From positions 1-42,606 of the forward strand of contig CAYRRY010000003.1 in the NCBI GenBank assembly GCA_964426805.1: a stretch of DNA of 42,606 nucleotides, written 5' to 3'. Below, one piece after another: positions 21,736-38,785 of the stretch; the first letter of the stretch is position 1, and the number at the start of each line of letters is the position of its first letter. The notes beneath the pieces were generated by a model. The model saw nothing but the letters and a program-made list of their open reading frames with translations. It made no database searches and was not told where the DNA came from. The DNA comes from an uncultured Candidatus Saccharibacteria bacterium (GTDB lineage Bacteria; Patescibacteriota; UBA1384; XYA2-FULL-43-10). The position numbers were made by a program, and so were the translations under genes.

Positions 21736-21751
21736 GCAATAACAAATATTT

Positions 21752-21788
21752 AGGGTACCTTGCAAGCGGGGGAGTGCCCTTTTTTTTA
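21752..21788 (+). terminator. Intrinsic terminator after secF
   Basis: Stem agggtac/gtgccct (one G-U pair) followed by nine T. Confidence 0.65.
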
Positions 21789-22424
21789 TTTTGAACTATA
21801 TTTTTATAATATAAATCATCATCACGACACTCAAGGGATGTTAATAATAGATGCATAAATAAATGAGCAAATAATTTCGTGCTATAAAGGATGTTCTATT
21901 AATGATTGCTAATGAGGCCATAGGCATGTCAACAAGTTTTTCCAAAATTTAAGAAATAATGCTATATAATATTGTTGTCGTTTGTTTGCTTGTCTGTTGA
22001 TATCCAGATGGCATTTTGGGTATGATTTTATGTGATTATTAGAGATAGAGGACTCATTAACCCTCCAAGTGCAGATAATGCCTTAGAACGCATTCTAGAG
22101 CTTTACGAGGCTAATATCAGCTATATTGTCGGCACTTGTGTACATATATACATACTACCAGAGCTGAGTTATTAAAACGTGTCGCATTATGTTTATTATG
22201 CGTCATGTTTATTGTTACTTAATAATAGTAGCAATAGAATAAGACATCTAAGCTTATCAAATGTTTTTTCAACAGGGGGATTTTTGAATGATTTTTTTTA
22301 CTACTCTATCTTCACCTTTTATATTGTGTTTCAATATTTCTTGACGTGGCATATCTTTGGTAAAAATAGATAAAATTCAAATGATTTTTTTTCAGCACTC
22401 CCCCGCCAACTTCTCAAAAATATC

Positions 22425-22446
22425 AAAAACGCCACTATTGTGGCGC
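22425..22446 (-). terminator. Intrinsic terminator after the 1103-aa ATPase gene
   Basis: Minus strand: cgccac-aata-gtggcg followed by ttttt. Confidence 0.6.
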
Positions 22447-22466
22447 TTCTAATATACATTAACTCT

Positions 22467-25400
22467 TTATAATTTTATTGCTTGACCTTCATCCATTCCA
22501 TTCGCTTGATCATCAATCTTGTCTTCACCGGCCTTCTCAGATTTTTCCTGAACTCTATCCGTTTTTGCATTTTCTTCTTTTCCCCCGACACTTTTGGTCG
22601 GAACTTCGACCTCAGGCTTCTTCGGTACGTCGGGGCTCTTCACCTTACCCTCTATCTTGGAAGCAGGCTTCTCTTGAACTTTGGGGTGACTCGCTTTTGA
22701 CGGTGGTTTTTTATTTCCTGGGTTTTTGCCCCTGTCTCCGCTGTCATTATCTTTTTTATTGTTGTTTTTATCTCTCTTTTTTCTTTTACCTCTCCCCTCT
22801 TTGTTCTCATTTTTCTTCTCAACTTTTTTAGCAAGCTCTATCATCTTCTTGCCGTCATCGGTAATAGTAACCCCAACATCTTCAAGTTCATCAGGCGTTA
22901 CTTCCTCTCCCACATACCACTTGACCCCGCCTCGAGCCGTATGTTCTTTGAATACTTTGTCTCCTATCAAATTTTCATGTTTTAGATAACGAGGTTTCCG
23001 CTCTTTTTTCTCACCCTCTTCGCCCCCCTCTCCTGGCAGAATTTCTGCCCTATCAGCTTTAACGCTACTTTCGGTATTACGATTAGGTTTTTCTTCTACG
23101 CGCTTCTCTTTTGGCAGAGCTTCCTTTGCCACCACTTCTGGTTTTTTATTAATTTTTTCTTGGGACTTTTCTTCTTTTTTCTCAGCTGGTTTCTCCTCAA
23201 CTTTTCTGGTTTCTGTTTTTTTATCTTTTGGCCTCTCCTCTCTCCTGTTTGTCGCACTATCTATATTTGGTTTTCTGTCATTATTTTTGTTACTTGGCCC
23301 ACTATCACCTTTTTTGTTTTTAACCAACAGCGCCTCAAGTCCACCTTTTTTGAAAGCATCGGCCTGATCTTTGAGCCCCTTCATTTCAGCCATGGCTCTG
23401 TCTTCAATGTTCTGCTCAACCGTAGCTCTAGGTTTAGCATATTTTTCACGAGATAAAGCTATCACTTTTTCAGCGTTTCCTGTTAGGATATCTACCGGCG
23501 GCAATGTCCGCGCAGAAAAAGCAGGAGAGGAGACACCATCAATTAAAAGCTTAATATAAACATTATACTTATCAAGATTTACTAGATCGTTCTGATCAAA
23601 AACGGGTTCGTACTCTTTTACAAGATAGTCTGCATCCCCACCACCAACTCTAAAAGATACGATTGTTCCCGCATTTCCAAATACTGCGTCTCTCACCTCT
23701 TCCGGCATCTGGTTAACATACTGATTAGCAATATTTAAGTTTAGATGATATTTTCTAGCCTCAGACAAAATAACAGCAAAAGACTCTGTTGCAAAGTTTT
23801 GGAACTCATCTACGTATAGATACGAGTCGGGCCTGTTATCCACTGTTGTGTCTGCACGATTCATTGCTCCTAGCTGAATCTTTGTAATCATCATGGCGCC
23901 AAGCAGTGCAGAGTTGTCTTCACCTATCTTTCCTCGAGAAAGATTGACTATCATTATTTTTTTGTTATCCATGATGTTTCTGATGTCTAAGGTGGATTGT
24001 GGCTGACCAACAATATTTCGAATAGTAGCAGTTGCTAGAAACTGTCCAATTTTATTTAAAATTGGAGAGACTGCTTCTGTCCTAAATTTATTATCATATG
24101 AGCCAAATTCATTAACCCAAAACTCCCGGATCACAGGATCTTTTACCTTCTCTACAACTCTATCTCTAAAACCAGCCTCTGTAAGCATCCGAGGAATGTC
24201 TAGCATAGTAGAGTTGGGATAATCAAGAAGAGCAAGCACCGTATTTCTAAGTATGTGCTCAAGACGAGGGCCCCATGAGTGGCCAAATATTTTCTTGAAG
24301 ATTCCTACAAAACCTGACGCCACCATACCCTTGAAGTCATCTTCAACATGTTCCAAAAGGTTAAAGGCTATCGGATATGCCCTGTCTGCAGGGTCGAAGA
24401 CAATAACGTCATCTATCCTCTCGTCTGGAATACACGCTAAAACCTTATCGGCAAACTCACCATGAGGGTCAACAACAATAACCCCACGGCCCTCTCGCAC
24501 ATCGTCTAGCGCCATGTTTTCCATCAAAACAGACTTACCTACGCCAGATTTACCAATGATGTAAACGTGCCGTCGTCTGTCGTCCATCTTTATGCCAAAC
24601 TTATTGAAAACATTTCTATAAGTTGTCTCGCCAATTGTAGTTAGCTGCTTCTCTGGGTTGTTATCCACCATCGGAAGATCAGCGGGGGGCTCACCTTTTT
24701 TAGATCCAGACCAAACAATATTTGGAGTTTCCACTGTTTCGTGAGGAAAGTGATAAAGAGAAGCCAGCTCTCCAATGTTATATATTGCGCCCTCATCCTC
24801 AAACATTCGATGAGCGTATTCGTTATAAAAGATATTATCATTTAAAGTTATCTCCCCTATCTTAAATCCGTTTCCATTGGTTGTGTTGTACTGCTTGAAG
24901 GTCGCGGCCACGCCCTGAGTTTTTATCCTGGCTGACATAGGATCAGAAGATATGGCAACAATTCTAATTTTTGTTTCATACCCAAGTTTTTGAACCTTAA
25001 ATTCAATTCCTTTTAAGGCCTCTTCGACTGCTCCAGATAACACCGGCGGACCCGCCTCTTCAGGAGCTTCGGCCCCAGGTCTCACCGCTTGTGCAAATAT
25101 CAATTTAAGAAATTTCCCGATTCCTCCTCCCACTGATTGAGCCATGCCCGGTGTTCCTATCTTCTTGCCAGATTTTACAGATTGAATCACTGAATTCCCC
25201 TTTTCCTGCCATTCATCACCTACCGGACGTATAATAAATTGAAGCCAAACCTGCTCACCAGGATTTAGCTTCGACATAACAGAAGTTATCCCAGAGATTG
25301 GATCAACCTCAAAATCAGAAAATAATTTGATTGGGTAAACATCTGGCTTGGTAGGAATAAGCTCGGCCGAAGCAAAACTTTTGCCACGCAAATCAGTCTC

Positions 25401-25778
25401 TTTTGTATAATCTTCAACCTCGTTTATCTCCACAGTTGGATACTGAGCATAAATTTGACCCTCAACAAAATCTCTTAAGTGAGTCGGGATATAAACAAAA
25501 AAACGAATGTATTTGTCTTTAGAAACAATTTCAAAACTCATATGATTTTGAAAAAGTGCAGATTCAGAATAAATTCCATGCAAAGAAGCAAACATCTGCT
25601 CCGCAGCCAGTGGAGCCTTTTCGTTGTTTTTAGGAACATCTATTCGAATTATCGAGTACTGTTGAGAGCTAAGCCATTCGAGCCTTTTTTTCTGTTTTCT
25701 TACATTGTAAAGCTGGTAGACGACAAAAACGCCCCCTCCCAATAAAACAGCATAAACTAAATAAAGAATGACTTGCAT
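22467..25778 (-). CDS. Membrane-anchored VirD4/TraD-like (T4 coupling-protein-like, FtsK/HerA superfamily) P-loop ATPase with a long K/E-rich C-terminal tail
   Basis: N-terminal TM helix, Walker A HVYIIGKSGVGKS, Walker B YLYVDEFQNF, ARKYHLNLNIANQ. The last ~310 aa are low-complexity K/E/P-rich. Confidence 0.78.
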   Translation of the reverse strand: MQVILYLVYAVLLGGGVFVVYQLYNVRKQKKRLEWLSSQQYSIIRIDVPKNNEKAPLAAEQMFASLHGIYSESALFQNHMSFEIVSKDKYIRFFVYIPTHLRDFVEGQIYAQYPTVEINEVEDYTKETDLRGKSFASAELIPTKPDVYPIKLFSDFEVDPISGITSVMSKLNPGEQVWLQFIIRPVGDEWQEKGNSVIQSVKSGKKIGTPGMAQSVGGGIGKFLKLIFAQAVRPGAEAPEEAGPPVLSGAVEEALKGIEFKVQKLGYETKIRIVAISSDPMSARIKTQGVAATFKQYNTTNGNGFKIGEITLNDNIFYNEYAHRMFEDEGAIYNIGELASLYHFPHETVETPNIVWSGSKKGEPPADLPMVDNNPEKQLTTIGETTYRNVFNKFGIKMDDRRRHVYIIGKSGVGKSVLMENMALDDVREGRGVIVVDPHGEFADKVLACIPDERIDDVIVFDPADRAYPIAFNLLEHVEDDFKGMVASGFVGIFKKIFGHSWGPRLEHILRNTVLALLDYPNSTMLDIPRMLTEAGFRDRVVEKVKDPVIREFWVNEFGSYDNKFRTEAVSPILNKIGQFLATATIRNIVGQPQSTLDIRNIMDNKKIMIVNLSRGKIGEDNSALLGAMMITKIQLGAMNRADTTVDNRPDSYLYVDEFQNFATESFAVILSEARKYHLNLNIANQYVNQMPEEVRDAVFGNAGTIVSFRVGGGDADYLVKEYEPVFDQNDLVNLDKYNVYIKLLIDGVSSPAFSARTLPPVDILTGNAEKVIALSREKYAKPRATVEQNIEDRAMAEMKGLKDQADAFKKGGLEALLVKNKKGDSGPSNKNNDRKPNIDSATNRREERPKDKKTETRKVEEKPAEKKEEKSQEKINKKPEVVAKEALPKEKRVEEKPNRNTESSVKADRAEILPGEGGEEGEKKERKPRYLKHENLIGDKVFKEHTARGGVKWYVGEEVTPDELEDVGVTITDDGKKMIELAKKVEKKNENKEGRGKRKKRDKNNNKKDNDSGDRGKNPGNKKPPSKASHPKVQEKPASKIEGKVKSPDVPKKPEVEVPTKSVGGKEENAKTDRVQEKSEKAGEDKIDDQANGMDEGQAIKL

Positions 25779-25849
25779 CTTATTTCTATTGTATATTATC
25801 CCCTACTTAAATTCAACGAGTATTCATCCAAAAAAAACCGCAAGCAGAC

Positions 25850-26887
25850 TTAAGCTAGTACAAACTTTCCGCTTTCAAGCTTTTTAAATTCTTTCTGGGT
25901 TTGTAAATTTATAAGAACTGTATTCTTGCGAACAAACCTCTGCTTGGAAACAACCTTAAAAATGTCAGCAAAATCCATAGATTTATTTGCCTTCTTCATA
26001 ACAGAAACTATAACATCTTTTACAGTGCCGGATACATATCCCCATTCTTTGAGCGCGTAGATGCCCCTGCCTATCAAAACAAATCTGTCATCGGCAATCA
26101 ATTCATTGTGAACCGTAGCCGCAACAACTTTTTTCTGATCAAATTTTTCAGTTTCAATTGTACGAGCAATCTCTCGAAAATGAAGAGGTTTCTGATATCG
26201 CTTTAAGATAAAGTATATCTTGTCTCTGACAGTTTTTGGACAAACTTCTGGCCAAACGCTTAGACCGATTGTTCCCTCATATGTTTCGATTAATTTTCTG
26301 CTTACTTCTGGCAAAGCCATAAGGATGGTTGTGTTATGTTTTTTATGGTCTGGATGTTCTGATAACAATACCTCTATCTTTTTTGGAGTGCTTTGACTGT
26401 CCAAATATTTTGCCCAGTCTTTCAACACTTTAACCAATTCGTCTTTCGGCATTTTTGAGAGGACCCAACTGTCATGCAAGTTATCATCTCTCTCAATAAT
26501 CTCGATGCCTGGAATCAGTTTCAAAAATAAGTGTAGATAATTTTCCTTTTCAGAATCTTTCGAAGTTCCATCGATTATCTTATGGAGCGCTTTATCTTTC
26601 TTTACAATTCCGCCCAAACCTTCCATCTTTTCTACAATGTAATCAGAAAAATCTTTGTAATCACGAACAACACCCTGGGAAAGTTTTTTTAAAGCTTCTG
26701 CTTGGATCTGTCGAACTCGTTCTCGAGATAGCTTTAGTTCTCGCCCAATAGCTGCAAGAGATTTTATCTCTTTGCCAATTCCAAAACGACCAATGACCAC
26801 GCTGCGTTCATTTTCCTTCAACTTTCCTATTTCGGAATTCATAATCTTGACTAGCTCTTGAATTTTGTATTTGTTATTCATCTTCAT
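25850..26887 (-). CDS. Sigma-70 region-4-like HTH plus C-terminal HARE-HTH-like domain protein (not a complete sigma factor)
   Basis: ERSVVIGRFGIG.EIKSLAAIGRELKLSRERVRQIQAEALKKL matches sigma region 4.2, and no region 2 is present. C-terminus FREIARTIE...VHNELIADDRFVLIGRGIYALKEWGY is HARE-HTH-like. Confidence 0.65.
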   Translation of the reverse strand: MKMNNKYKIQELVKIMNSEIGKLKENERSVVIGRFGIGKEIKSLAAIGRELKLSRERVRQIQAEALKKLSQGVVRDYKDFSDYIVEKMEGLGGIVKKDKALHKIIDGTSKDSEKENYLHLFLKLIPGIEIIERDDNLHDSWVLSKMPKDELVKVLKDWAKYLDSQSTPKKIEVLLSEHPDHKKHNTTILMALPEVSRKLIETYEGTIGLSVWPEVCPKTVRDKIYFILKRYQKPLHFREIARTIETEKFDQKKVVAATVHNELIADDRFVLIGRGIYALKEWGYVSGTVKDVIVSVMKKANKSMDFADIFKVVSKQRFVRKNTVLINLQTQKEFKKLESGKFVLA

Positions 26888-26912
26888 TTGATTGTTCTTA
26901 AACTAATATTAT

Positions 26913-27413
26913 TTAATTGATGATATTATCTACAGCTGCCCAATCCACTTCTTCCTTCTCGGGGATAACTAGGCTTAGCTTGTCGCCAGGACTTGCCTTG
27001 AAATAAGTGACAGAAGCAAGAAGTAGCTGGTATTTCTTTCCATCCACATCTGCCTGAAACTCACCCTCATCGATCGCCTCAAGTGTACCTACAACATTCT
27101 TACGTTCAATCGGACCGATCTGCTTATAGGTATATCTCCCATCTTCGGAGACAGATAACTTTAATACGTCGCCAACAACTAGCTTAGACTTAGATGCATA
27201 GTTTAGAGGAACGTCGTACTCTTTCTTGTCGTTGCCGATCATTTTTTCGCCGTCAAAAACACCTTGCACAGCATCTTCCTCGTCAGCCGCTTCAACTCCT
27301 TCAGCCTTTCTTTCTACAGCCTGATCAAAAAGTTTTGACTTTGCAAGCCGTATTTTATTCTCTGCGTTGTCTAGAAGCTTTCGAATCTCCTCCAAATCTT
27401 TCTCGTGAACCAT
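26913..27413 (-). CDS. Hypothetical beta-rich protein with an internal duplication
   Basis: The ORF track starts at GTG 27449. The internal ATG at 27413 has an AAGGA SD. Two similar segments: SKLVVGDVLKLSV and FKASPGDKLSLVI. Confidence 0.55.
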   Translation of the reverse strand: MVHEKDLEEIRKLLDNAENKIRLAKSKLFDQAVERKAEGVEAADEEDAVQGVFDGEKMIGNDKKEYDVPLNYASKSKLVVGDVLKLSVSEDGRYTYKQIGPIERKNVVGTLEAIDEGEFQADVDGKKYQLLLASVTYFKASPGDKLSLVIPEKEEVDWAAVDNIIN

Positions 27414-27494
27414 ATTGTTCCTTTTTTTGTTTTTATGATTTATCTTCACTACATTACCATATAAGCTATTTTAAGTCAACTTATTTTTTAATTA

Positions 27495-27527
27495 AAAAAA
27501 CTATTAATTATTATTTAATAGTTTTTT
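27495..27527. terminator. AT-rich 13-bp perfect hairpin between the 849-aa ATPase gene and the downstream operon
   Basis: aaaaaactattaa / ttaatagtttttt with a 7-nt loop. A/T runs on both sides. Confidence 0.45.
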
Positions 27528-27601
27528 AAAGATAATACGATATTTCTAAACTATTTGTTATTCACTGCTAGCTATTAACTAAAACTCTACATGCCCAAAA
27601 T

Positions 27602-30151
27602 TTATCCCATAGGCCCCTTTTGGTTTCCTTCACCGATTCCCGGGAGATCTATCTTGTCCACTTTGGATCGTTCCAGAATCTCTTTTTCTATAACTTCTTT
27701 TGCTTTTCCGTATTTAAGTCTTGAAAGCTTCTTTATAGCTTCACCAAGTTTAACATTTTCGTTTGGATCGGGAGCTATGCTTATGCCGTTGAAAGGCCTG
27801 GTGGGAGCACCTTCTATGAGCATTTTAATATAAAAGTTATATTTATCGATAGTTGTCATATCGTCCATCTTCAGCGGATCAAACTCTTTCACTAAAAATT
27901 CCGCGTCAGCTGCACCAATTCTAAAGGAGATCAATGAACCCGCATTACCCATAACAGCGTCGCGGATTTCCTCGTCAAGTTGAGCCACGTATTGGTTAGT
28001 AATGCTCAAGGAAAGTTTGTATTTTCTGGACTCCGAAAGAATAGTCGCGAAAACGTCGGTAATAAAGTTTTGGAACTCATCGACATAGAGATAAAAAGGA
28101 ATTCTGTTTTCTTCTGGCATGTCCTGCCTTGAAAAAGCTCCCATGGCAATTTTGGAAACAATAATCATCCCCAATAAAAAAGCGTTGATTTCACCTATCA
28201 TTCCCTTCGAAAGATTGCAAATCAGAATCTTTTTATTGTCCATCACATCTCGAAAGTCAAAAGACGACTTCGTTTGTCCCAAGATGTTTCTCATCATATC
28301 GTTGGTCATAAAACGTCCAAACTTAGAGGTGAAATAGTTTAGCATCTCAGATTTGTGAAAGTCAGATGTTTTCTTCATCTGCTTCTCCCAAAAAGATCTA
28401 ACTACAGGATCAGTAACGTGTTTGACACAATCTTTCTCAAAATCAGGATCTGTAAATAATCTTGGAATATCTATTATAGTCCCCCCATCTGGCCTGGCCA
28501 TCAAAGTTAGTGAAGCATTCCGCATCCAGTGCTCAAACTGAGGACCCACTATTCCTGTTTGCCCAGGGTCAAACAGCTTGTAAAACATCTGAATGGCTTC
28601 CTGAACTAAAAAGTCTTTCTGCTCAACTGTTTTCCACTCAAGCATATTCAGCCCCATCGGTCGCTCGATGTCAGCGGGGTTAAAGTATATAACATCCTCT
28701 GCTCTTTCTTTTGGAATTCTCTTTAATATCCACTCCGCCGCGTCACCGTTCGGATCTAAATAAGCCACACCTTTCCCGGCCTTTATGTCTTGAAGAATCA
28801 TATTTTGAAACAAGACAGTTTTACCAACACCGGTTTTTCCTATCATATAAACGTGCCGCAGACGATCCTCATCTTTGATTTTTATCGGCTTTGTCTCTCC
28901 ACGGTAGATACTATTTCCGAGCACAGTTCCTTCGTTCGGCAAGTTCGGTGGAGGAGCGGCTCTTTTGGCTAGAAGCCACGAAATATTTGGAGTTTCAGTG
29001 AACCTATTTGGGAAGTGATAGATTGAGGCCAGCTCTTCAGTGTTCAAAAGCATTTTAGGTCCCCTACCATATAAACGGAAAGTATAGTTTGCTATCTCTT
29101 CTGATTTTTTCTTTGGAAATTGCTTTGATATTCCATTTGAGTCAGGTGCATTAAACTGATTAAAAGCTGAAGCGATATTGTCTAAGTTTTGCCGTGCCTC
29201 ATGCTCTGTTTTTGCAACCGCCACTGCTCTAACCTGGCAGTCAAAGCCAAGCTTGGCGGTCTTTTCGCCAAGTAATTTAATTTGAGACTCCTGCATCGGT
29301 GTCAGTTTGTGTGGTTGATTTGGATTATAGAACTGATCTTTGTTCTTTTCGTCTTCCGTTTTTCCGGAACTACTGATGTTGCCAATAAAATTGAAAAAGG
29401 TTTCAGCCACCTTCGAGCCAGCCGAGTTTCCATATGTAACCCTAGATTTACCCTGTTGCACGTTATAGGCCGCCTTCTCTACACTGTAGCGCCAAGTTCC
29501 CGAAGTCGGTCTCATCAGAATCTGCACTCCCGCAGTTTCATCTTCTGAAAGCTTGGAAAGTGAATTTGTAAGAGCATTAAGAGGATCGTCTTCAAGGTTC
29601 TTGTATGTTTTTATAGGGAAAATGTATTTTTTATTCAGTTTAAACTGCATCGCCTCAACTTTGAGTGGTTTGTCAGAAAATATCGAGTAATCCTCTATCT
29701 CCTTCGCTACCTCTACCTGAGCATGCGGATACTGAGCAAGCAGGTTTTTTTCCACTATTTGATAAATACTTTTAGGACAACCTACAAAGAAATACACCTT
29801 GCCATCTTTCGCCACATACTCTAGCGATATATGGTCTTGACCGGTCAAGTGGTGTTGTATGCTCTGCTTGAAGAGGGCTGATATGTTGGCATAAAATGGC
29901 TCCACCACTCCCAGCATCTCCTGAAAGTTTTTCTTCTGGTCATCCTCGTCGGCATGCTGTTCTTTGGGAAGTGAAACTTTTATCATCATCCAGTCCTTTA
30001 TTTTGTTGACCTGGGTTCGACGCAGGTATGATCTACGTAATTTCTGATACACAAAATAACCAACGATTATAACGATAGCAATAACGAGAGGCCAGACCCA
30101 CCACGGTGCCCCTCCAGAACCAGAAGTGTAATAATATTCACTTGTTGACAT
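27602..30151 (-). CDS. Membrane-anchored VirD4/TraD-like P-loop ATPase (paralog of 22467-25778)
   Basis: N-terminal TM helix, Walker A HVYMIGKTGVGKT, Walker B YLYVDEFQNF, SRKYKLSLSITNQ. Collinear with the 1103-aa paralog through the shared ELASIYHFP block. Confidence 0.78.
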   Translation of the reverse strand: MSTSEYYYTSGSGGAPWWVWPLVIAIVIIVGYFVYQKLRRSYLRRTQVNKIKDWMMIKVSLPKEQHADEDDQKKNFQEMLGVVEPFYANISALFKQSIQHHLTGQDHISLEYVAKDGKVYFFVGCPKSIYQIVEKNLLAQYPHAQVEVAKEIEDYSIFSDKPLKVEAMQFKLNKKYIFPIKTYKNLEDDPLNALTNSLSKLSEDETAGVQILMRPTSGTWRYSVEKAAYNVQQGKSRVTYGNSAGSKVAETFFNFIGNISSSGKTEDEKNKDQFYNPNQPHKLTPMQESQIKLLGEKTAKLGFDCQVRAVAVAKTEHEARQNLDNIASAFNQFNAPDSNGISKQFPKKKSEEIANYTFRLYGRGPKMLLNTEELASIYHFPNRFTETPNISWLLAKRAAPPPNLPNEGTVLGNSIYRGETKPIKIKDEDRLRHVYMIGKTGVGKTVLFQNMILQDIKAGKGVAYLDPNGDAAEWILKRIPKERAEDVIYFNPADIERPMGLNMLEWKTVEQKDFLVQEAIQMFYKLFDPGQTGIVGPQFEHWMRNASLTLMARPDGGTIIDIPRLFTDPDFEKDCVKHVTDPVVRSFWEKQMKKTSDFHKSEMLNYFTSKFGRFMTNDMMRNILGQTKSSFDFRDVMDNKKILICNLSKGMIGEINAFLLGMIIVSKIAMGAFSRQDMPEENRIPFYLYVDEFQNFITDVFATILSESRKYKLSLSITNQYVAQLDEEIRDAVMGNAGSLISFRIGAADAEFLVKEFDPLKMDDMTTIDKYNFYIKMLIEGAPTRPFNGISIAPDPNENVKLGEAIKKLSRLKYGKAKEVIEKEILERSKVDKIDLPGIGEGNQKGPMG

Positions 30152-30182
30152 TACCTATATGATAACAGATTAATGTTTATCT

Positions 30183-31439
30183 TTATGCTGCTGCATCTAA
30201 TTCTTCTCGCGCGGGTTGTTCTTCGGCCGCAGCATTCACAGAATGTTGATCTCTAAACATGTGCTCTGCGTTACTTGCCGCAGCTGAATTTGAACTTCCA
30301 TTCTGCATTTCTCTTATTAAATGTTGGGCACCGGCTGTTTTGCCTTTCTTACTCCCTCCACCAAACATTCTTGCCGCTCTTGCGAAAATCCCAGTCTTTT
30401 CTGCCGGTTCCTCCATTTCTTGAGCTTGAACATCGGGATTTCCTGTGTCTATTGGGCCGGCAAGCTCCATGGCAGGACTGTCGACAAGTTCCAGAATCGG
30501 CTTAGCAACAGGCACTGGTTGTTCTGCTTCAGCTGGCATTGCTGGTGCTTCTTGTTCAGTTGAATTCACTGCAGGCAAAACTTCTTGAACTTGAGCTGCT
30601 GCTTCGACTGGTTTTACAGGGACAGCCTCAGGGGTAGGTTTTTCGATTGAATTCTCAGTTGTCGGCATAGCCATACCTGAGAGATCTTCTGACTTGTCAG
30701 GGCTTTTAGGAGTTTGATCGGCCACCTCAGCAATAACTTCCCGGGTTGGGGTCAAGGGTTCGATTGGGAGAGAATCATTACTTGCCACATTCCCATCGGA
30801 AGCTAATTGGGTGACAGTATTTACATCAACAGCGACTTCATTTACAGTCGGCTCTTCATTCACCATTTTAGTGTCTGCCGCGTCAACGACCCCTCTCTCT
30901 CCTGCTCGCACCAAATCATTGACCGCTGCGTCAACTCCACCCTGAACCACCGGAGCACTGTTAGTGCCCAAAGCTTCAGCGGCTATTATTTTATTAGATA
31001 CTGCTTCAACTTTGGAGTCGACAGGTTCATTACCCTTTCGAGTATGGGTTTTTGCACCCACTACGCTCCCGTCACCCCTAACAGTCGCCACGTCAACTAT
31101 CTCAACCGGACTATCTGCTTGCTCGGCTGTCAGATTATCTTCAGGAGCAGCTTCCGGTTCAACGGCTGGCGGTGGCTCGGGTTTTGGTTTTCCGTGTCTG
31201 GGGAAATCTCTTGGATTCACATATGGCTTGATTGGCTCATTAATGATTGGTTTTCCTCTGTCTGGCTTCTTCGTACCAACAGCTTCTCCAGAGTTATCCA
31301 CAACTTCAGCAACTCCTGGCGTCTCACCCGGGGGTATAAACTTAAGCCTAGCCCCAGTCGGGCTGACTGCAGGAAGCGAGACAACACTCCTCTTTCTTGC
31401 TTCTTCTTGCTCTAGTAGTTCATTTAAATTTAAAGCCAA
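30183..31439 (-). CDS. Low-complexity P/A/V/E-rich protein (predicted disordered)
   Basis: 418-aa ORF with no TM segment or motif. GC is visibly above backbone (27/60 in the line at 30541). The plus-strand ORFs overlapping it are treated as shadows. Confidence 0.55.
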   Translation of the reverse strand: MALNLNELLEQEEARKRSVVSLPAVSPTGARLKFIPPGETPGVAEVVDNSGEAVGTKKPDRGKPIINEPIKPYVNPRDFPRHGKPKPEPPPAVEPEAAPEDNLTAEQADSPVEIVDVATVRGDGSVVGAKTHTRKGNEPVDSKVEAVSNKIIAAEALGTNSAPVVQGGVDAAVNDLVRAGERGVVDAADTKMVNEEPTVNEVAVDVNTVTQLASDGNVASNDSLPIEPLTPTREVIAEVADQTPKSPDKSEDLSGMAMPTTENSIEKPTPEAVPVKPVEAAAQVQEVLPAVNSTEQEAPAMPAEAEQPVPVAKPILELVDSPAMELAGPIDTGNPDVQAQEMEEPAEKTGIFARAARMFGGGSKKGKTAGAQHLIREMQNGSSNSAAASNAEHMFRDQHSVNAAAEEQPAREELDAAA

Positions 31440-31586
31440 AACCCCTCCATTTCCTATATGTTTATATCTGAAAACTTTTTTGTTGTATCTATATTGTACA
31501 AAGATTGCAGATGAATGTAAACATGTTGTATAATTATTTTAACAAGCGAATTTATGTATTTTTCTATTTAATAATCGGGGAGGGTT

Positions 31587-34500
31587 ATGAATGAGAGTCT
31601 GCGCTATGGCGAAAAAGAGCTTAATGACTTTATTGACAGACAAAATAAACAAAAAACCAAAGAAGAAGAAAATCCAGACAGACACAAAATGATGCGTTAT
31701 GAGGGCCCAGAAACCGATGATGCAGAAAAAGACCCTTTCGGTGTCGGCAAGGGATACGGAGCAAAAAAACTTGGAGTTGACAACCAGGAGTCTGAAACTA
31801 CAAACTCCACTGAGCTTGTTACCCTAAATGAAGTTAAGCCCATCTCTTCGGAGGTTATTAATGACGCTCTGAGCCTCGTAGAAGCTGACAATCGAAAAAA
31901 TGAAAATCTCAAAATTTTGAAAGAACTCATACTAAGACTAGTCCGCGAAGCTTTAGAAAAAGTACTAGCAAGCGATGGAAATGCTTACGAAGTAAAAGGC
32001 GCTGAAGGTAATTCTCAGAAAGAAGGTGTGCCGGTTGACAAAATGATCAACTTTCTCCTAGAAGAGATCGACCCTGAATCAAAAACAGAGATTTCTCTAA
32101 AGGGAGACAATAACACCTTGAGAGATGAAGTCCTGACTCAGGTTATGCACCCCTTCAACCGTCTTAGTCACCTAGAAAGAAGCAAGGTTGATGAATCTGA
32201 AGCCGCAATAATTGAAAATATCGATTTCATACTTACGTCAGAAGAGATAGCAGAAGAAGACCGCAAACGCCTAGAGATGGTTAAATTGATGATTGAAAAA
32301 TCGGAGAGATTTTTTGATCTAGATAGATCATCTTCACAATTCGACGAGGAAGGACGGAGAGTTAATAACGGCTGGAGAACTGATCACGAAGCTGAGGAGA
32401 TAAAAGAAGATGAAGTCCGCGACATGGGATCTGAAGACGCCAACCAGGAAAAAGCAAAGGCAGATTTGAATGATCGCAGAGAAGTCTTTGTTGAAGAAGA
32501 AGAGAATGTACCAGGAGGAGAAGCTGAGAAAGAGATAACACCAAAAGTTGTTGATTTCTCTGTTGAAGACGCTGAACCCACAGATCCAAAAACTGAACCC
32601 AGACAAAAAGCTCTACCGCCCCACCCCGAACAAGACGCGCTGCCGCCTCACGTTGAAGAAAAGGAAAAAATAAAGATCGCAGATATATCTGAAATCGTGA
32701 AGGCAATGGCTTGGAGAATAGCCGAAAATAGAGTCAACGAAGTGATTAACTCTGTAAATGTTCCTCAAGAATCAGGATTTTTCGGGAAAATAAAATCAGC
32801 TGCCAAAGGCATGTGGTCAAGATTAACAACTCGTGAAGGATGGCAATCCAGCCTGCACGCTATGTCAGAAGAGGGATACAGAAAAAAATATTATGATGAA
32901 GCGATCGCTGAAATACAGGGAAACAACGATTTGTTAAACGCGATAACCAACAGGGCTGAGGGAGAAGGAAGTGGCGGGACAACTCCGGAAAAAATTGAGC
33001 ATCACGAGATTCTTGATGCCGTCGTTAAACAGATGGAACTTGGCTTAGTAGAGGCTTGCGAACAGGGCGAAGACCTTGTTGACAGATCTGCTCAATTCGC
33101 CGAATTATTCAACAGACATCTGAAAGGTGAATTCTCTTCTAGAAGTGAATTCGAAGCCGCAGCAGAGGAAGCTATTAGAAATTCCGACCTTTCCCAAGAA
33201 GAATTTGCAAAAGACGAATCGCGAAGAGATGAAGCAGAGGGCCTAATGTACGCTTCGAACCTTTGGGACATTGCGGAGAGATTCAAAACACAAAGAGAAG
33301 AAGAGATAGATGCGGCACTTGGCTCTGAAAGTTTGTCAGATGTCGAAAAGGAAGCCTATATAGAGGGCTTGGAGGGATTGAATGACCTAGACATACAGTT
33401 AGTTACTAAGTTCGGAGACATAAACGAAGACCGAGCCAGAAGACCAGACAAAAAAGGAAGATATTTTAGTTGGGCAGACAACGCTCTCGACAGACTTTAC
33501 TCTGTGCCAGTTGTAGGAAGTGTAGCCAAGAAGATTACCCATCCGGTAGCAGTCGGCCTCGCTGCCTCGCTGCTTGCTCGACCTGCGGCAAAAGGAATTA
33601 TTCTAGGCGCTGCGGCAACTTTGGGTGTCGGTACTGGCTTTGCTCTGCCAATTCTAATCGGTGCTGGAATAGCAGGCGCTATTTCATACGGCAGAAGAGC
33701 CAGAAAAGTGGGACACGAAAGAGGTATGGAATCTAGAAGACAAACACTTGGCGAAGAGGGAGAGGGACAAACCGCTGAACAACTTCGTGAAAACACTTTT
33801 GCTCAAGTAGACGGAGAAGCTTTGCTTGAAGCGATAGGTAGTGACAACGAAGACGTTCAACACGACGCTCTTGTAGAAGCATCTTCTTTGCTTGAAGCCG
33901 AAAGAAGATTGAGGGCTCAGGGCAGAAATACTGATTTAATCAGAATAGGTCAAGCTGAAGGTCAGAGATTGCAATCAAACATTGTTACAAAAACTGAACT
34001 TATGGCTGCAGTTTCCGAAGCAGGACTCTCTGAAAAAGATCAACTTCTTATAAACGATAGGGCAGATGAACACGTTTCACAAGTCAGAGAAAAAGACCGA
34101 GACTTTGAAAGTTATCGCAAGAAAGAGAGTCTTCGCGCCGCAGCTAAATCTGCCGCCACTGCAGCTGTCCTGGGCTTCGCAGCTACTGAAATTGCTGACG
34201 AGGTAAGCGAACATATGCATAATGCGGGCGAACAAAATAATGTTGTAACAGCTAGCGAATGGATGCAGGGGCAGAGACCCGACGTGCATCATTATGAGCT
34301 GGATTCTCCCAAAGGCCCTGATGGTGAAAAAATTTGGGTATTTGAAAATAATTCAGACTCAATACCTGTGGAAGTTAATGAAAACCTAGACGTCGAACTT
34401 GGCATAAACGCAGAAACTGGTCAACTTGAACCCTATGGCGCACTGCCTGCAGGGGTAACCTTAGAAGACGGACAGATAGTACAGCACATCGAAGGTCTTG

Positions 34501-36728
34501 AAGGTGGCGAATTAAACGCCGAGAATTGGGGTGCTTTGCGAGACAAGCTAGTTGAAGATAACCCAGAGTTGTTCACAAAAACAGAATCAAATTGGACACG
34601 CTTTATGTCCAACGATAGACAGCCGCTCGGCAACTCTTATCACCCAGAAGGCTATACCGCTAATTCAGAAGGTACTGAGCTCGGCATGAGCTTTCTTCCT
34701 TCCGGAGGCGATGGCTCAGTTGATATAGATATTTCAGCCATGGCCGGCCATACAGCCTTTGGTGGCGGTCACAGCATAGATATCGGAAATGATACTCAAC
34801 TTTTTGTAACCATAGGACCTAGAGAGTATGAACTTTCTCACGATGTATTGGTTGTAGAAATCACTCCCGGCGAAAATGCCCACTTTCCCAAGGGGCTAGC
34901 AGACCGGTTTTTCGAAAAACTGAGCAATGGAAAAATCATCCCTAGAGAAGGCTTTCAGATAACAGTTGATCAGGCAATAGATGGAAATCTAAATACTATT
35001 GGCGATATGGATGAAACGAATATGGCTTCATTTGCTGCAGAAATCAATGGTTCAGAAGGAACAGTAGATGCGGTCGCTGGAATAGATAACGTGGTTTCAA
35101 TGCCTTCTGTTACTGAGCACAATGCCGGAGATGTGCTACCACCTATTGCTTTAGGGTCTGACCGCGAAAAACACGTTGGCAAGAAAAAAAGCGCTGAGGA
35201 TAAAACAAATAAAGACCAATTGCCGCCTGACCCGAAAAATCCCGAAACAGAGGAAGCCAACAAAGCATTAATCATGCCCGAAGATAAAAAAGAACAGATA
35301 TTGGAAGCATCGCGAGAAGCTGTGAAGAGCGGAGAACCTGAGAAAGCATCTATCTTGTCGCGATTGATTGAAGATGAGCAGATAGATCCTGAATCTTTAA
35401 AAGAGGAAATTAAAAATGACCATGGAGAGCGTTTTTCAGAAGAAAGATTCGATCAGGCCTTGGCTGAAATAACACTTATCGTCTCCCCGCCCCCGGAGTC
35501 ATCCTATGAAGAAAGTGCAGGTGACGAGGAAAATGCGCCCACTCCCAAACCTCACGAAGAAGAAACAACAGATGAAACCAAAAAAAGATTCCAAGAGGCA
35601 ATTATAATGTTCGATAAGGCCATCAAAGCAGGAGCTACTTTCAAGGATCGATTGCAAGCCGTAAAAAACGCTCAAAAAATGGGTTTCTACAGGGATGAAG
35701 AAGGAAAGGTTATAAACAAAATTAGACTGATTAGTCTCAAGGAAGATGATCAAGAATGGGATGACCAAGAGTGGGTTGATATCTCGGATCTTACAGAAGA
35801 CTATGACAACAGAATTTTGTTGACCTTAAGGGCCAGCAAAGAGGTGCTAAAAAAAGCGGTTGAAAAAATAGGAAAAACGAACCCCAACGACAGTCCCCTC
35901 TCAGAGCAGCTCAAAGGCGAAGCCGAAGAGAAGCCTGAAATAGAGGAGAATGTAGTTGACGAAAAAGAAGATGAGGTCGAGCTGGAAAATGCTGACAATG
36001 AAAAAGAGGGAGAAATTGAAAAGATTGTGCTAAACCGAGATCGCAAAGAGCAGCTTACTCAAAAACTTGAAGAGTACCAGCAGAGAGATCCTTACAAAGC
36101 TCCGGAGACGAAGATGGATACAGTATGCAAAACAGAAGTGTTGAATGCACTGCTTGAAGATGGCGAGGTAGATACTGAGAACCTTCGTGAGGAATTGCGT
36201 CAAAAGTACAGGTCTGGATTCCACGAACCAGCCTTTGATAACGCGATTTTCGTAATTAATAATTATAACGAAAACGGTGGAGTTGATGTTTCAGGAGGAT
36301 CGGGCTTACCACAAGTGGAAGCAAAAGAAGGAGAAGAGAAAGCGTTAAGCAAAGAAGAAGCGGCTGAACTCAAAAAATTGTCACGAGAGTACGGTGATTC
36401 TTTGAGCATGAAAGGCAACAGTCGACCAAGGTGGATTTTGCATGAAAATATCAGAAAAGGCACTATTGTTGAAGAAGGAGTTATAAATAAATCAGAAAAT
36501 GGTAAGGTTAGCCCAGAAGATAATTACAAATTAAGTGCTGAGGAATATTCTGTCTTTGGCTATGATGAAAAAACGGGCATGGTAGAAATGAAAATATCTT
36601 CGAAAAAACCTAAGAAGAGAAACGAAAGTGTCTCGATAAGACTAGATCGCCTAGTAAAATACATGGAGCCTAAAAAAGGGCATGAAGCTAGAAGACAGGC
36701 TGCAGCTGAAACAATTCAAGTAAATTAA
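31587..36728 (+). CDS. Giant (1713 aa) acidic protein with a central TM hairpin; no recognised domain
   Basis: GGGGAGGG SD. Uninterrupted 5.1-kb ORF. Hydrophobic block VAVGLAASLLARPAAKGIILGAAATLGVGTGFALPILIGAGIAGAISYG near residue 650. E/D/K-rich elsewhere. Confidence 0.8.
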   Translation: MNESLRYGEKELNDFIDRQNKQKTKEEENPDRHKMMRYEGPETDDAEKDPFGVGKGYGAKKLGVDNQESETTNSTELVTLNEVKPISSEVINDALSLVEADNRKNENLKILKELILRLVREALEKVLASDGNAYEVKGAEGNSQKEGVPVDKMINFLLEEIDPESKTEISLKGDNNTLRDEVLTQVMHPFNRLSHLERSKVDESEAAIIENIDFILTSEEIAEEDRKRLEMVKLMIEKSERFFDLDRSSSQFDEEGRRVNNGWRTDHEAEEIKEDEVRDMGSEDANQEKAKADLNDRREVFVEEEENVPGGEAEKEITPKVVDFSVEDAEPTDPKTEPRQKALPPHPEQDALPPHVEEKEKIKIADISEIVKAMAWRIAENRVNEVINSVNVPQESGFFGKIKSAAKGMWSRLTTREGWQSSLHAMSEEGYRKKYYDEAIAEIQGNNDLLNAITNRAEGEGSGGTTPEKIEHHEILDAVVKQMELGLVEACEQGEDLVDRSAQFAELFNRHLKGEFSSRSEFEAAAEEAIRNSDLSQEEFAKDESRRDEAEGLMYASNLWDIAERFKTQREEEIDAALGSESLSDVEKEAYIEGLEGLNDLDIQLVTKFGDINEDRARRPDKKGRYFSWADNALDRLYSVPVVGSVAKKITHPVAVGLAASLLARPAAKGIILGAAATLGVGTGFALPILIGAGIAGAISYGRRARKVGHERGMESRRQTLGEEGEGQTAEQLRENTFAQVDGEALLEAIGSDNEDVQHDALVEASSLLEAERRLRAQGRNTDLIRIGQAEGQRLQSNIVTKTELMAAVSEAGLSEKDQLLINDRADEHVSQVREKDRDFESYRKKESLRAAAKSAATAAVLGFAATEIADEVSEHMHNAGEQNNVVTASEWMQGQRPDVHHYELDSPKGPDGEKIWVFENNSDSIPVEVNENLDVELGINAETGQLEPYGALPAGVTLEDGQIVQHIEGLEGGELNAENWGALRDKLVEDNPELFTKTESNWTRFMSNDRQPLGNSYHPEGYTANSEGTELGMSFLPSGGDGSVDIDISAMAGHTAFGGGHSIDIGNDTQLFVTIGPREYELSHDVLVVEITPGENAHFPKGLADRFFEKLSNGKIIPREGFQITVDQAIDGNLNTIGDMDETNMASFAAEINGSEGTVDAVAGIDNVVSMPSVTEHNAGDVLPPIALGSDREKHVGKKKSAEDKTNKDQLPPDPKNPETEEANKALIMPEDKKEQILEASREAVKSGEPEKASILSRLIEDEQIDPESLKEEIKNDHGERFSEERFDQALAEITLIVSPPPESSYEESAGDEENAPTPKPHEEETTDETKKRFQEAIIMFDKAIKAGATFKDRLQAVKNAQKMGFYRDEEGKVINKIRLISLKEDDQEWDDQEWVDISDLTEDYDNRILLTLRASKEVLKKAVEKIGKTNPNDSPLSEQLKGEAEEKPEIEENVVDEKEDEVELENADNEKEGEIEKIVLNRDRKEQLTQKLEEYQQRDPYKAPETKMDTVCKTEVLNALLEDGEVDTENLREELRQKYRSGFHEPAFDNAIFVINNYNENGGVDVSGGSGLPQVEAKEGEEKALSKEEAAELKKLSREYGDSLSMKGNSRPRWILHENIRKGTIVEEGVINKSENGKVSPEDNYKLSAEEYSVFGYDEKTGMVEMKISSKKPKKRNESVSIRLDRLVKYMEPKKGHEARRQAAAETIQVN

Positions 36729-36757
36729 TAGTAATATATTTATTAAGGAGCATATAT

Positions 36758-37090
36758 ATGGATAAATCAAAAACAAAAATGGTACCGGAGATGACACCCG
36801 AAGTAAAAGATTATCTTCAACTTCTGATGCGCGAAAAAAAGCTTGATGTGTTGCCAGCAAAACTTCAATCAGAGATGCTGCTTGACCTTTTCGTCCGATA
36901 CATGGATTATCTGCTTGCCAATACTGCCACTTCGCTAGAAGAAGATAATAGAGACCAATTCGACAAGCTTCTGGACAGCGGAGCACCGCAAGAAGAGATT
37001 AACGATTTTATAAAAAAGAATGTAGATTCAGCAAAGGTCGCACAAGAAACTAATCAGGAATTCAGGGATATTTTTCTCGGCAATAAATAG
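36758..37090 (+). CDS. Small helical protein (DUF5663-like)
   Basis: AAGGAG SD. The pattern LP..LQSEMLLDL......L..T..SL.EE....F..LL.....EEI..F resembles DUF5663 proteins common in CPR. This is from memory, not a search. Confidence 0.45.
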   Translation: MDKSKTKMVPEMTPEVKDYLQLLMREKKLDVLPAKLQSEMLLDLFVRYMDYLLANTATSLEEDNRDQFDKLLDSGAPQEEINDFIKKNVDSAKVAQETNQEFRDIFLGNK

Positions 37091-37191: not shown

Positions 37192-37223
37192 GAAAGACCC
37201 GCATGCAAGCATGCGGGTCTTTC
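37192..37223 (-). terminator. Strong hairpin terminator after the islet-3 313-aa gene
   Basis: 15-bp perfect inverted repeat gaaagacccgcatgc/gcatgcgggtctttc. The minus strand continues cctcgtttt. Confidence 0.6.
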
Positions 37224-38197: not shown

Positions 38198-38273
38198 CGT
38201 GAATCCTCTCCTCGTAAATTGTCGCCCTCTTGGGGCGTGATATGCACACCCCATTAAGGGGACTCTCAAAGTG

Positions 38274-38339
38274 AACTTCGAAAGCAAGCAAAGAATAAGT
38301 ACTTACTCTCTCTTCGCTTTCGAAGTTTATTCTTTTTTT
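38274..38339. other. 12-bp perfect long-loop hairpin plus T-run in the leader region of the 313-aa gene
   Basis: aacttcgaaagc (38274-38285) pairs with gctttcgaagtt (38316-38327). T-run at 38328-38339 on the plus strand. Confidence 0.35.
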
Positions 38340-38482: not shown

Positions 38483-38785
38483 CTACTCGACCTCGTCGTC
38501 AGCGGGCGGGGTCTCGTCGTCCTCGTCGTCAGCGGGCGTGGTCTCGTCGTCCTCGTCGTCAGCGGGCGTGGTCTCGTCGAGGAACAGCTCTTCCCTCATT
38601 GTGCGAGCGGCCGAAGCGATGGCTACGGCATTGCCCTCGACAAGTGCCAGTGCGTTACCAACCTCTTCATTCGCAGCCTGCTGGCCCGCGATTGCGCCTA
38701 TCTCGCTCAACTGAGCGAGAAAGGCGACGGCTTTCTTGTTGCCTTTTTCCGCTGCATTATTCGCTCTCTCGATGAGGGTTGACAT
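38483..38785 (-). CDS. Small helical protein with a tandem acidic C-terminal repeat (high-GC islet 3)
   Basis: The ORF-track start is 38857, but ATG at 38785 has GGAGG 9 nt upstream. Sequence runs MSTLIERANNAAEKGNKK...DETTPADDEDDETTPADDEDDETPPADDEVE*. Confidence 0.62.
   Translation of the reverse strand: MSTLIERANNAAEKGNKKAVAFLAQLSEIGAIAGQQAANEEVGNALALVEGNAVAIASAARTMREELFLDETTPADDEDDETTPADDEDDETPPADDEVE
38491..38580. repeat. Three tandem 30-bp repeats within the 38483-38785 CDS
   Basis: cctcgtcgtcagcgggcg(g/t)ggtctcgtcgt at 38491-38520, 38521-38550 and 38551-38580, nearly identical. They encode the DDEDDETTPA units. Confidence 0.9.

Follow-up and report, generated by a model that had tools for sequence, protein, structure and literature searches.

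Paralogous coupling-protein-like ATPases with a VirB4-like N-terminal domain and their recurrent partners in Patescibacteria

What does a pair of coupling-protein-like ATPases do on a bacterial chromosome, with no other part of a type IV secretion system (T4SS) beside it? The question is raised by contig CAYRRY010000003.1, which in its entirety (42,606 bases) forms the window analysed here and has the character of an ordinary chromosome of Patescibacteria (Candidate Phyla Radiation, CPR), its nearest named relatives being Candidatus Berkelbacteria. Two minus-strand genes of the window, here called ATPase-A and ATPase-B, encode motors of the type IV coupling protein (T4CP) type, and the reading that we favour, though tentatively, is that of a membrane-anchored motor that has been domesticated, handles nucleic acids and has adaptors of its own, most likely feeding a chromosomal T4SS. 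A preliminary description, made from the sequence alone, had proposed the module as an undescribed system; it proves to belong to a kind already on record, the orphan coupling proteins of Patescibacteria, and is not categorically new. The two ATPases are laid out as follows (aa, amino acids).

22467-25778, minus strand: ATPase-A, an A-type DUF8128/T4CP-like protein of 1103 aa
25716-25772, minus strand: transmembrane helix of ATPase-A, residues 3-21
24684-25661, minus strand: N-domain of ATPase-A, residues ~40-365
23379-24683, minus strand: ATPase domain of ATPase-A, residues 366-800
24531-24569, minus strand: Walker A motif of ATPase-A
23793-23822, minus strand: Walker B motif of ATPase-A
22470-23378, minus strand: Lys/Glu-rich tail of ATPase-A, residues 801-1103 (303 aa; 20.5% K, 13.9% E)
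27602-30151, minus strand: ATPase-B, a B-type DUF8128/T4CP-like protein of 849 aa
30047-30103, minus strand: transmembrane helix of ATPase-B, residues 17-35
28967-29992, minus strand: N-domain of ATPase-B, similar to the VirB4 N-terminal domain, residues 54-395
27662-28966, minus strand: ATPase domain of ATPase-B, residues 396-830
28238-28627, minus strand: all-α insertion of ATPase-B, residues 509-638

The two proteins are paralogs that share this layout (36% identity over 831 aa, E 1e-165, BLASTP). The N-domains are 28.6% identical, the ATPase domains 44.8% and the RecA cores 55-58%, in line with the earlier estimate by eye that about half of the core residues are identical. The N-domain carries its end motif at residue 337 in ATPase-A (ELASLYHFP) and 373 in ATPase-B (ELASIYHFP), followed by Walker A (HVYIIGKSGVGKS at 404 in A, HVYMIGKTGVGKT at 433 in B), Walker B (YLYVDEFQNF at 653 and 687) and an RKY motif (ARKYHLNL at 674, SRKYKLSL at 708). 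These motifs and the N-terminal helix are present as the preliminary description had reported them, and both Walker motifs and the RKY motif are invariant in 84 A-type and B-type sequences. Each ATPase has one predicted transmembrane helix at its N-terminus, followed by basic residues and modelled as helical by AlphaFold 2 (AF2) in ATPase-B; a canonical T4CP has two.

Several sequence models bear on the family to which the motors belong. ATPase-A matches the Pfam families DUF87 (32.8 bits) and TrwB_AAD_bind (20.6 bits, cut-off 20.5), both at or above cut-off, and one A-type ortholog reaches 36 bits with TrwB_AAD_bind over profile positions 16-309 of 387. ATPase-B falls just below the cut-off of TraG-D_C (21.2 bits versus 22), some orthologs pass PF02534, PF12696 and PF10412, and B-type orthologs carry PF26449 together with PF02534. 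The best NCBIfam matches are VirD4-like CD1115 and SXT/TOL TraD, with T4CP equivalogs at 41-55 bits against cut-offs of 250-650. VirB4 models of NCBIfam align only locally at the P-loop (VirB4_plasma 25 bits versus 590; TraC 16 versus 567), and neither the Pfam VirB4 families CagE_TrbE_VirB and AAA_10 nor FtsK_SpoIIIE (PF01580) were reported for the window proteins, the latter scoring about 14 bits in orthologs, below its cut-off of 24. A sequence search of the PDB with the ATPases reaches only the P-loop of DotL, the best match, and of TrwB. At the level of sequence, these results point to the VirD4/TraD/TraG side of the FtsK/HerA superfamily and not to the VirB4 side.

The N-domain, a cytoplasmic domain of some 340-350 aa, corresponds to Pfam PF26449 (DUF8128) in the precomputed annotation of the window protein P0121 and of all listed orthologs, a model not reported in our own Pfam scan of the window. 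A profile search with this domain retrieved 4,252 representative clusters, in which it is always N-terminal. The full-length AF2 model of ATPase-B (pLDDT 82.9, pTM 0.72) orders a transmembrane helix, an α/β N-domain (54-377) and a RecA core whose Walker A and Walker B motifs are separated by an all-helical insertion (509-638). An all-α insertion at this place is a hallmark of T4CPs such as TrwB and VirD4. With Foldseek against the PDB, the best match of the full-length model is VirB4/TrwK (E 5e-17), aligned in both domains over about 900 columns; TrwB is matched with a TM-score of 0.63-0.65 (normalised to TrwB; root-mean-square deviation ~5 Å, ~420 columns), and Cagβ and HerA more weakly. Modelled alone (pLDDT 86.1, pTM 0.83), the N-domain returns 14 matches, all of them VirB4/TrwK chains, at E 1e-7 to 3.5e-5 and TM-scores of 0.38-0.43, with the next match at E 0.011. 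On the strength of these models, its likeness to VirB4 is a structural resemblance only.

The ATPase-B model has a single transmembrane helix and lacks both the γ (KOPS-binding) domain and the multi-pass N-terminus of FtsK-type motors. The HAS-barrel N-domain and the NurA or effector partner of HerA-type proteins are likewise absent: the N-domain matches VirB4 and not HerA, and the operon holds no nuclease or effector gene. Sequence models and Foldseek matches taken together therefore define the family as a coupling-protein-type motor with a VirB4-like N-terminal domain. The TrwB fold match, the all-α insert and the two Pfam matches of ATPase-A thus bear out the proposal that the ATPases belong to the FtsK/HerA superfamily and resemble coupling proteins. 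We found no description of a VirB4-like N-domain on a coupling-protein motor in a T4SS review, and no mention of DUF8128 in the literature.

If the motors are of the coupling-protein type, what might present a substrate to them? Two genes lie between the ATPases.

25850-26887, minus strand: helix-turn-helix (HTH) protein of 345 aa, matching Sigma70_r4 (44.5 bits) and HARE-HTH (40.5 bits) in Pfam
26678-26827, minus strand: sigma-70 region-4 HTH of this protein, residues 21-70
26042-26233, minus strand: HARE-HTH of this protein, residues 219-282
26913-27413, minus strand: p166, a protein of 166 aa that starts MVHEKD and comprises an N-terminal helix and two tandem β-rich repeats

The HTH protein, whose two domains score above the Pfam cut-offs as the preliminary description had anticipated, lacks sigma region 2, and its sequence matches in the PDB are confined to sigma region 4. 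Full-length orthologs stand directly upstream of the A-type gene in all nine close loci (9/9), and also directly upstream of two distant A-type ATPases (L094, E 1e-77; L095, E 2e-83). The idea that it is a diverged Replic_Relax protein was rejected (hhalign probability <1%). For p166, the preliminary description had spoken of a duplicated 166-aa protein. A duplication does exist within the protein, as two ~45-aa β-rich halves (hhalign probability 92-93%, E 2-6e-7), but the other 166-aa open reading frame (ORF), at 13110-13610, is unrelated. p166 has at least 8000 homologs, all unnamed or 'hypothetical', without a Pfam domain, and a search of the PDB gave no sequence match. It adjoins the B-type ATPase in 14 of 84 loci, lies directly downstream of the A-type in two distant loci (L089, E 2e-36; L096, E 5e-27) and in a third, L090, is fused to the A-type C-terminus (residues 891-1006 of 1039, E 1e-21). 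The A-type tail in L095 carries an S1 (OB-fold) domain instead (32.5 bits, cut-off 22), with no p166-like domain detected there; nor was one detected in the tail of the window's own ATPase-A. Both partners are found in 9/9 close loci and at least one of them in 5/10 distant A-type loci, a small and non-independent sample because several of these ten loci share synteny. Judged from gene order and fusion, the A-type ATPase has recurrent partners in the HTH protein and p166, distant lineages included.

How far the rest of the arrangement is conserved was assessed in 94 loci (84 anchored on B-type genes and 10 distant A-type loci). The full order of B, p166, HTH and A, usually followed by DUF1290 and SecF/SecD, is confined to the closest clade (9 loci, at least 63% identity). 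Loci at ~50% identity read TGT, B, A, with no genes between the two ATPases, and in Doudnabacteria-like loci p166 lies 0.7-2.7 kb downstream of B with no A-type copy nearby. The other ~60 B loci, from Microgenomatia, Paceibacteria, Saccharimonadia and Gracilibacteria, hold a single B-type gene among housekeeping genes that include NrdR, RNR, an Xer-type recombinase, DivIC and aminoacyl-tRNA synthetases. Distant A-type genes stand in the context DnaB ... LytR_C-like, A, (p166), a tetratricopeptide repeat protein, YebC, RuvC(-RuvAB), Xer and GyrA, and the SecDF and TGT genes that flank the module in the window are also present in the relatives' loci. The expectation that the neighbourhood co-occurs across Patescibacteria thus holds for the HTH protein and p166, which accompany A-type genes far outside the clade and in one case by fusion, but fails for the complete four-gene arrangement; the neighbourhood is conserved by half.

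When 150 diverse members representing the N-domain family are compared with A and B, their similarities fall into two modes, with a broad A-type clade (37-67% identical to A, ~35% to B, mostly long-tailed) and a broad B-type clade of ~800-860 aa. On this sequence evidence, we regard the A/B duplication as ancient. In Patescibacteria the family is chromosomal, syntenic, 40-75% identical across classes and near-universal.

Beside these comparisons we record several observations on the loci themselves. An Xer-type tyrosine recombinase lies within a few genes of both paralog types (L023, L089, L090, L096, L100 and ~20 further loci); the proximity to Xer, RuvC and DivIC may be inherited synteny only, or may hint at a link to recombination or division. 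A small unannotated protein is encoded directly upstream of the B-type gene on the same strand, of ~145 aa in 18 loci of Microgenomatia-like and other lineages (cluster 3; e.g. L021:143-487) and of ~133 aa in 6 loci (cluster 35; e.g. L058:1135-1560). Neither cluster has a Pfam match, and a remote relationship to p166 or DUF5663 was rejected (hhalign probabilities ≤1%); this protein may be a partner specific to the B-type. In L093 (9962-15003, minus strand) a 1710-aa protein with a TrbL_3 (VirB6-like) Pfam match adjoins a distant A-type ATPase. It is the only T4SS-channel-like neighbour in the 94 loci and close in size to a 1713-aa protein of the window, with no sequence similarity found between the two.

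The housekeeping context suggests an alternative, namely that the ATPases are an autonomous DNA motor of membrane-anchored rings that operates without a T4SS, with the HTH protein and p166 as DNA adaptors, comparable to FtsK/SpoIIIE, Streptomyces TraB or the phage relatives considered below; possible roles include chromosome handling at division, dimer resolution with Xer, and DNA uptake or export at host contact. We rate this as unlikely but as the main rival of the favoured reading. It draws on the B-type gene adjoining an Xer-type recombinase in 24 loci and DivIC in 21, besides NrdR and RNR, and on the place of the A-type gene between DnaB and YebC-RuvC(-RuvAB)-Xer-GyrA. These counts are not independent, because related lineages inherit gene order, and RuvC-YebC and Xer are common housekeeping neighbours anyway. 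The single transmembrane helix offers no obvious DNA pore across the membrane, and the FtsK_SpoIIIE scores and missing γ domain described above also speak against an FtsK-like motor. Replacement of FtsK in particular is weakened by the separately annotated ftsK of TM7x (TM7x_00370; PMC10768705), which makes such a replacement unnecessary there.

Relatives beyond Patescibacteria show where the family originates. Among annotated plasmids, 644 records match by tblastn, including 304 from Bacillus, 93 from Streptomyces and others from Staphylococcus, Clostridium, haloarchaea and Sulfolobus, and 22 of these plasmid records match over at least 80% of the query, including the N-domain. On a 27.5-kb Bacillus subtilis plasmid the homolog heads an operon and is followed by a Replic_Relax protein and conjugal-transfer proteins, then by an 847-aa VirB4-like ATPase, a 743-aa VirB6-like protein and a cell-wall hydrolase. 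The order on an Embleya linear plasmid is PrgI-family protein, VirB4-like ATPase, homolog, Replic_Relax and NlpC/P60, and on a Halomontanus plasmid a conjugal transfer protein, the N-domain as a separate ORF and a 'TraM recognition domain' ATPase, with no annotated relaxase. The family therewith occupies the coupling-protein slot of conjugation operons on plasmids, and these relatives settle its origin as a coupling protein. Consequently the preliminary claim of an undescribed system does not stand: on Bacillus and Embleya plasmids, proteins with these two domains hold the coupling-protein slot, orphan VirD4-type T4CPs away from virB4 have been published for Patescibacteria (PMC12102498), and at the level of the family the ATPases belong to a characterised group with known partners. 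No relatives of p166 or of the HTH protein were found in the plasmid or phage loci examined. In the Halomontanus rarus plasmid NZ_CP135526 (L087:11785-16030), the DUF8128 ORF of 391 aa overlaps the start of the 1026-aa ATPase by 11 bases, and the split N-domain is either a split gene or a frameshift.

Plasmid-borne relatives raise the possibility that the module is the decaying remnant of an integrated conjugative element, as might a compositionally odd segment at 37-39 kb of the window. This is hardly credible and effectively refuted by the conserved chromosomal synteny. The GC content of the module equals that of its flanks, the same housekeeping flanks (SecDF, TGT) recur in relatives, the catalytic motifs are intact, and purifying selection is strong over thousands of orthologs. 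Readings as a prophage, an integrated conjugative element or a defence island were rejected, with no tRNA, integrase or relaxase found in the window, and the view that this is not a conjugative element is upheld by the housekeeping chromosomal context.

Another proposal, in which the module would defend against phages or plasmids by means of a HerA/FtsK-like ATPase, is very improbable. PADLOC returns mad8 at E ~1e-15 and weak HerA matches for both ATPases, as well as a weak MzaA match for the HTH protein, and there is P-loop similarity of the DUF87 and nSTAND type. The PADLOC and DUF87 matches are, however, limited to the generic P-loop/ATPase region, and the operon encodes no effector domain (nuclease, Sir2). 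The near-universal, syntenic distribution is the opposite of patchy defence islands, and the plasmid relatives stand in conjugation operons.

Phages carry the family as well: 54 phage records match, and the profile phrog_5156 aligns end to end with both paralogs (E 3e-84 for A, 4e-91 for B). Their location in early replication and recombination regions without a T4SS is a further argument for an autonomous motor. Two transmembrane-less two-domain members are encoded by Bacillus phage 035JT001 (gp50; L091:6866-9022) and Geobacillus phage TP-84 (gp48; L092:6767-9031). In SPP1-like and other Bacillus and Geobacillus phages, members lie just upstream of genes for Gam-like, Erf, replisome-organiser and helicase proteins, a case of a coupling-protein-like ATPase in lytic phages.

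Stand-alone coupling proteins of Patescibacteria have been reported before. Quiñonero-Coronel et al. (2025) count 5,713 VirD4-type T4CP homologues in 2,918 of 3,035 Patescibacteria genomes, about two per genome, of which only 148 lie near virB4, and VirB4 itself in 2,417 genomes (PMC12102498). Orphan T4CPs having thus been reported in bulk, stand-alone VirD4-like ATPases in CPR are already known. The patescibacterial T4SS nests in the monoderm MPF-FATA class with relaxases nearly absent, T4SS loci of the class ABY1 often contain comF, recG and radA, and the authors consider an exaptation of the T4CP possible (PMC12102498). The rarity of T4CPs near virB4, the remark on exaptation and the dispensability of the Southlakia homologue, given below, are further points for an autonomous motor. 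The published counts do not by themselves show that T4CPs are decoupled from the T4SS: we infer that, if each gene is missed in ~20% of metagenome-assembled genomes, VirB4 would be seen in 80% of genomes and one or both of two T4CPs in 96%.

This literature also bears on an alternative in which the ATPases are protein-effector coupling proteins for the patescibacterial T4SS, A and B recognising different effector sets, the HTH protein acting as a transcriptional regulator only and p166 as a chaperone or adaptor like IcmS/IcmW. We consider this, in all its parts, clearly improbable. Relaxases are almost absent in Patescibacteria and the T4SS is thought to be co-opted for non-conjugative roles (PMC12102498; PMC10633639). 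DotL, the best sequence match in the PDB, stands for a type of T4CP that relies on small adaptors and on an extended C-terminal tail, and the A-type protein has a long disordered tail. On the other side, the domains appended to the ATPase or encoded next to it are of kinds that bind nucleic acids (S1, scoring above the Pfam cut-off, sigma region 4, HARE-HTH), the closest relatives of known context adjoin relaxase-type genes or phage DNA-metabolism genes, and the T4CP of Southlakia is non-essential while its T4SS is essential.

We therefore return to the favoured reading, a domesticated motor with its own adaptors that most likely serves a T4SS. By analogy with TrwB, each ATPase would form a membrane-anchored hexameric ring. 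The HTH protein, p166 and the Lys/Glu-rich (basic) tail would serve as adaptors, delivering to the ring a nucleic-acid substrate that is most likely DNA, and ATP hydrolysis would drive or hand over the substrate at the membrane. Its most likely destination would be the relaxase-less, MPF-FATA-derived T4SS encoded elsewhere in most Patescibacteria chromosomes, and the 418-, 1713- and 110-aa neighbours described below would be fast-evolving bystanders.

Several observations weigh against this interpretation. Apart from the VirB6-like gene of L093, no T4SS gene was found within ±10 kb in the 84 B loci or within ±5-10 kb in the 10 A loci. The Bacillus and Geobacillus phage relatives lack a T4SS, and the family can accordingly work without a channel. 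In Southlakia epibionticum the T4SS is essential and the T4CP homologue is not (PMC12102498, citing PMC10633639), and the essential role of the T4SS therefore does not need the T4CP; Wang et al. (2023) likewise describe this essential T4SS as without recognisable coupling or relaxase proteins (PMC10633639). Neither partner was detected in 5/10 distant A-type loci, one of them a 3.6-kb contig, and partners were not detected beside most B-type genes in the 84 B-anchored loci. The HTH protein could merely regulate transcription of the operon, and the structural match between N-domain and VirB4 reaches a TM-score of only ~0.4.

A bolder version would make the two ATPases, the HTH protein and p166 a phylum-wide, vertically inherited, T4SS-independent nucleic-acid translocation apparatus, derived from a domesticated conjugative coupling protein that has kept a VirB4-like N-domain, and representing an evolutionary intermediate between VirB4 and VirD4. 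This we hold to be quite unlikely. If true, it would concern core patescibacterial biology, for example DNA or RNA movement at host contact or chromosome handling at division.

Three further genes abut the module, as the preliminary description had stated, and the first two of their products are strongly acidic.

30183-31439, minus strand: acidic, low-complexity protein of 418 aa, net charge -31, without a transmembrane helix, separated by a 31-bp gap from ATPase-B, upstream of which it lies
31587-36728, plus strand: giant protein of 1713 aa, net charge -146, with a hydrophobic stretch at about residues 640-700
36758-37090, plus strand: helical protein of 110 aa, transcribed divergently from the ATPases

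The 418-aa gene is possibly co-transcribed with ATPase-B. None of the three proteins has a match in Pfam, NCBIfam, PADLOC or PHROG, or a homolog in the 84 related loci (BLASTP without low-complexity filtering), and the 418-aa protein is not similar to the genes of 460-590 aa that occupy its position in relatives. The similarity of the 110-aa protein to DUF5663 is sub-significant (hhalign probability 7%). In close relatives the equivalent slot holds variable proteins of 690-1280 aa, small DUF5663-like proteins and proteins of 180-590 aa, all on the ATPase strand, relative to which the giant and 110-aa genes of the window are inverted. That the three are parts of the module, as had been suggested, is not supported, with no detectable homologs even at the same position in close relatives, and we read the slot as fast-evolving and variable.

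In the wider window, the ATPase module is flanked by genes for enolase, YbeY, FtsA, FtsZ, NrdR, thioredoxin, an AddA-like helicase-nuclease, RmuC, RluD, SecD/SecF, TGT and the ribosomal proteins L1, L10 and L7/L12 with an L10 leader. Our Pfam scan covered 46 ORFs of the 42.6 kb, comprising all sizeable non-nested ORFs and a few antisense ORFs, among which no VirB4, VirB6, VirB8-10, relaxase, pilin, integrase or replication initiator was found; only a generic SLT transglycosylase (3868-4596) bears a loose likeness to VirB1. The preliminary observation that other T4SS parts are missing is correct for these ORFs but allows no conclusion for the genome, since the window, one whole contig, amounts to ~4% of a typical genome and not to the organism. 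No tRNA lies in the 42.6-kb window. A scan for promoters and terminators gave nothing above shuffled expectation and does not inform operon structure.

Other parts of the window showed features of their own. Between SecF and ATPase-A, a 731-bp stretch (21736-22466) contains no ORF above 64 aa and no Rfam match at gathering thresholds; relatives have a DUF1290 gene (113-123 aa) there, and the stretch may represent an unannotated RNA or the site of a gene that was lost or has decayed. The segment 37100-39100 has a GC content of 0.47-0.49 against ~0.40 and long ORFs on both strands, and could be either inserted foreign DNA or a region of variable surface proteins. It includes a strong terminator with a 14-bp hairpin (37192-37223, minus strand), a Pro/Thr/Ala-rich protein of 343 aa with a single transmembrane helix (37256-38287, minus strand) and a 124-aa ORF with C-terminal TTPADDEDDE repeats (38483-38857, minus strand), the two proteins without a family match. 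The only Rfam match of the window is the ribosomal protein L10 leader (RF00557, 50.7 bits) at 41354-41477 on the minus strand, upstream of L10-L7/L12. The 166-aa ORF at 13110-13610 (plus strand) lies between the NrdR/thioredoxin genes and that of the AddA-like helicase; neither Pfam nor NCBIfam gives a match for it.

As far as we found, the VirB4-like N-domain, the ancient A/B paralogy and the conserved HTH and p166 partners, including the fusion, appear to be new. Patescibacteria account for much of bacterial diversity and are dependent on host cells. Material exchange with these hosts is a central question, and their T4SS, essential in the one system tested, has neither a recognised coupling protein in its cluster nor a relaxase. 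Our analysis turns the abundant 'orphan T4CPs' into a specific family with a VirB4-like N-domain, two ancient paralogs and recurrent partners of its own, and thereby replaces the literature's vague remark on a possibly exapted T4CP with a defined module. The HTH protein and p166 are concrete candidates for a substrate-recruitment module, and the very large 'hypothetical' family of p166, sometimes fused to the ATPase, gains a first functional context. Should the motor work without the T4SS, it would offer a new case in which part of the conjugation machinery has been domesticated to serve a core task of the cell.

Among known systems, the orphan T4CPs of the published survey are similar in setting, being likewise patescibacterial, chromosomal, present at about two per genome, rarely near virB4 and without a relaxase. 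The survey rests on hidden Markov model counts and, in the portions available, describes no DUF8128 or VirB4-like N-domain, no A/B split and no HTH or p166 partners; its 5,713 T4CPs may not coincide exactly with the DUF8128 family (PMC12102498).

TrwB of R388 (PDB 1E9R and related) shares the membrane anchor and a RecA-like nucleotide-binding domain with an all-α insert between Walker A and Walker B. It differs in having two transmembrane helices, no ~340-aa N-domain and an identity of only 15-16%, and in its partnership with the TrwC relaxase and the Trw T4SS of the same plasmid. VirB4/TrwK of R388 (PDB 7O42, 7O43, 8RTD) resembles the window proteins in its layout of N-domain and C-terminal ATPase and is the only significant match for the N-domain alone, whereas the ATPase half of the window proteins scores better with TraD/VirD4 models and the window has no VirB3 or VirB6 neighbour.

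The phrog_5156 ATPases (phage G gp156, TP-84 gp48 and 035JT001 gp50) contain both domains, and unlike the window proteins have no transmembrane helix and lie in the early replication/recombination region of Bacillus and Geobacillus phages without a T4SS. The plasmid homologs, annotated as 'DUF87 domain-containing' or 'T4SS conjugative DNA transfer family', are set apart by their plasmid location, an identity of 21-30%, their Replic_Relax, VirB4-like, VirB6-like and cell-wall hydrolase neighbours and, in the Bacillus versions, the lack of a transmembrane helix, but they share the two-domain layout (tblastn residues ~84-796), match the N-domain model at E 1e-12 to 1e-31 and carry the same ATPase motifs.

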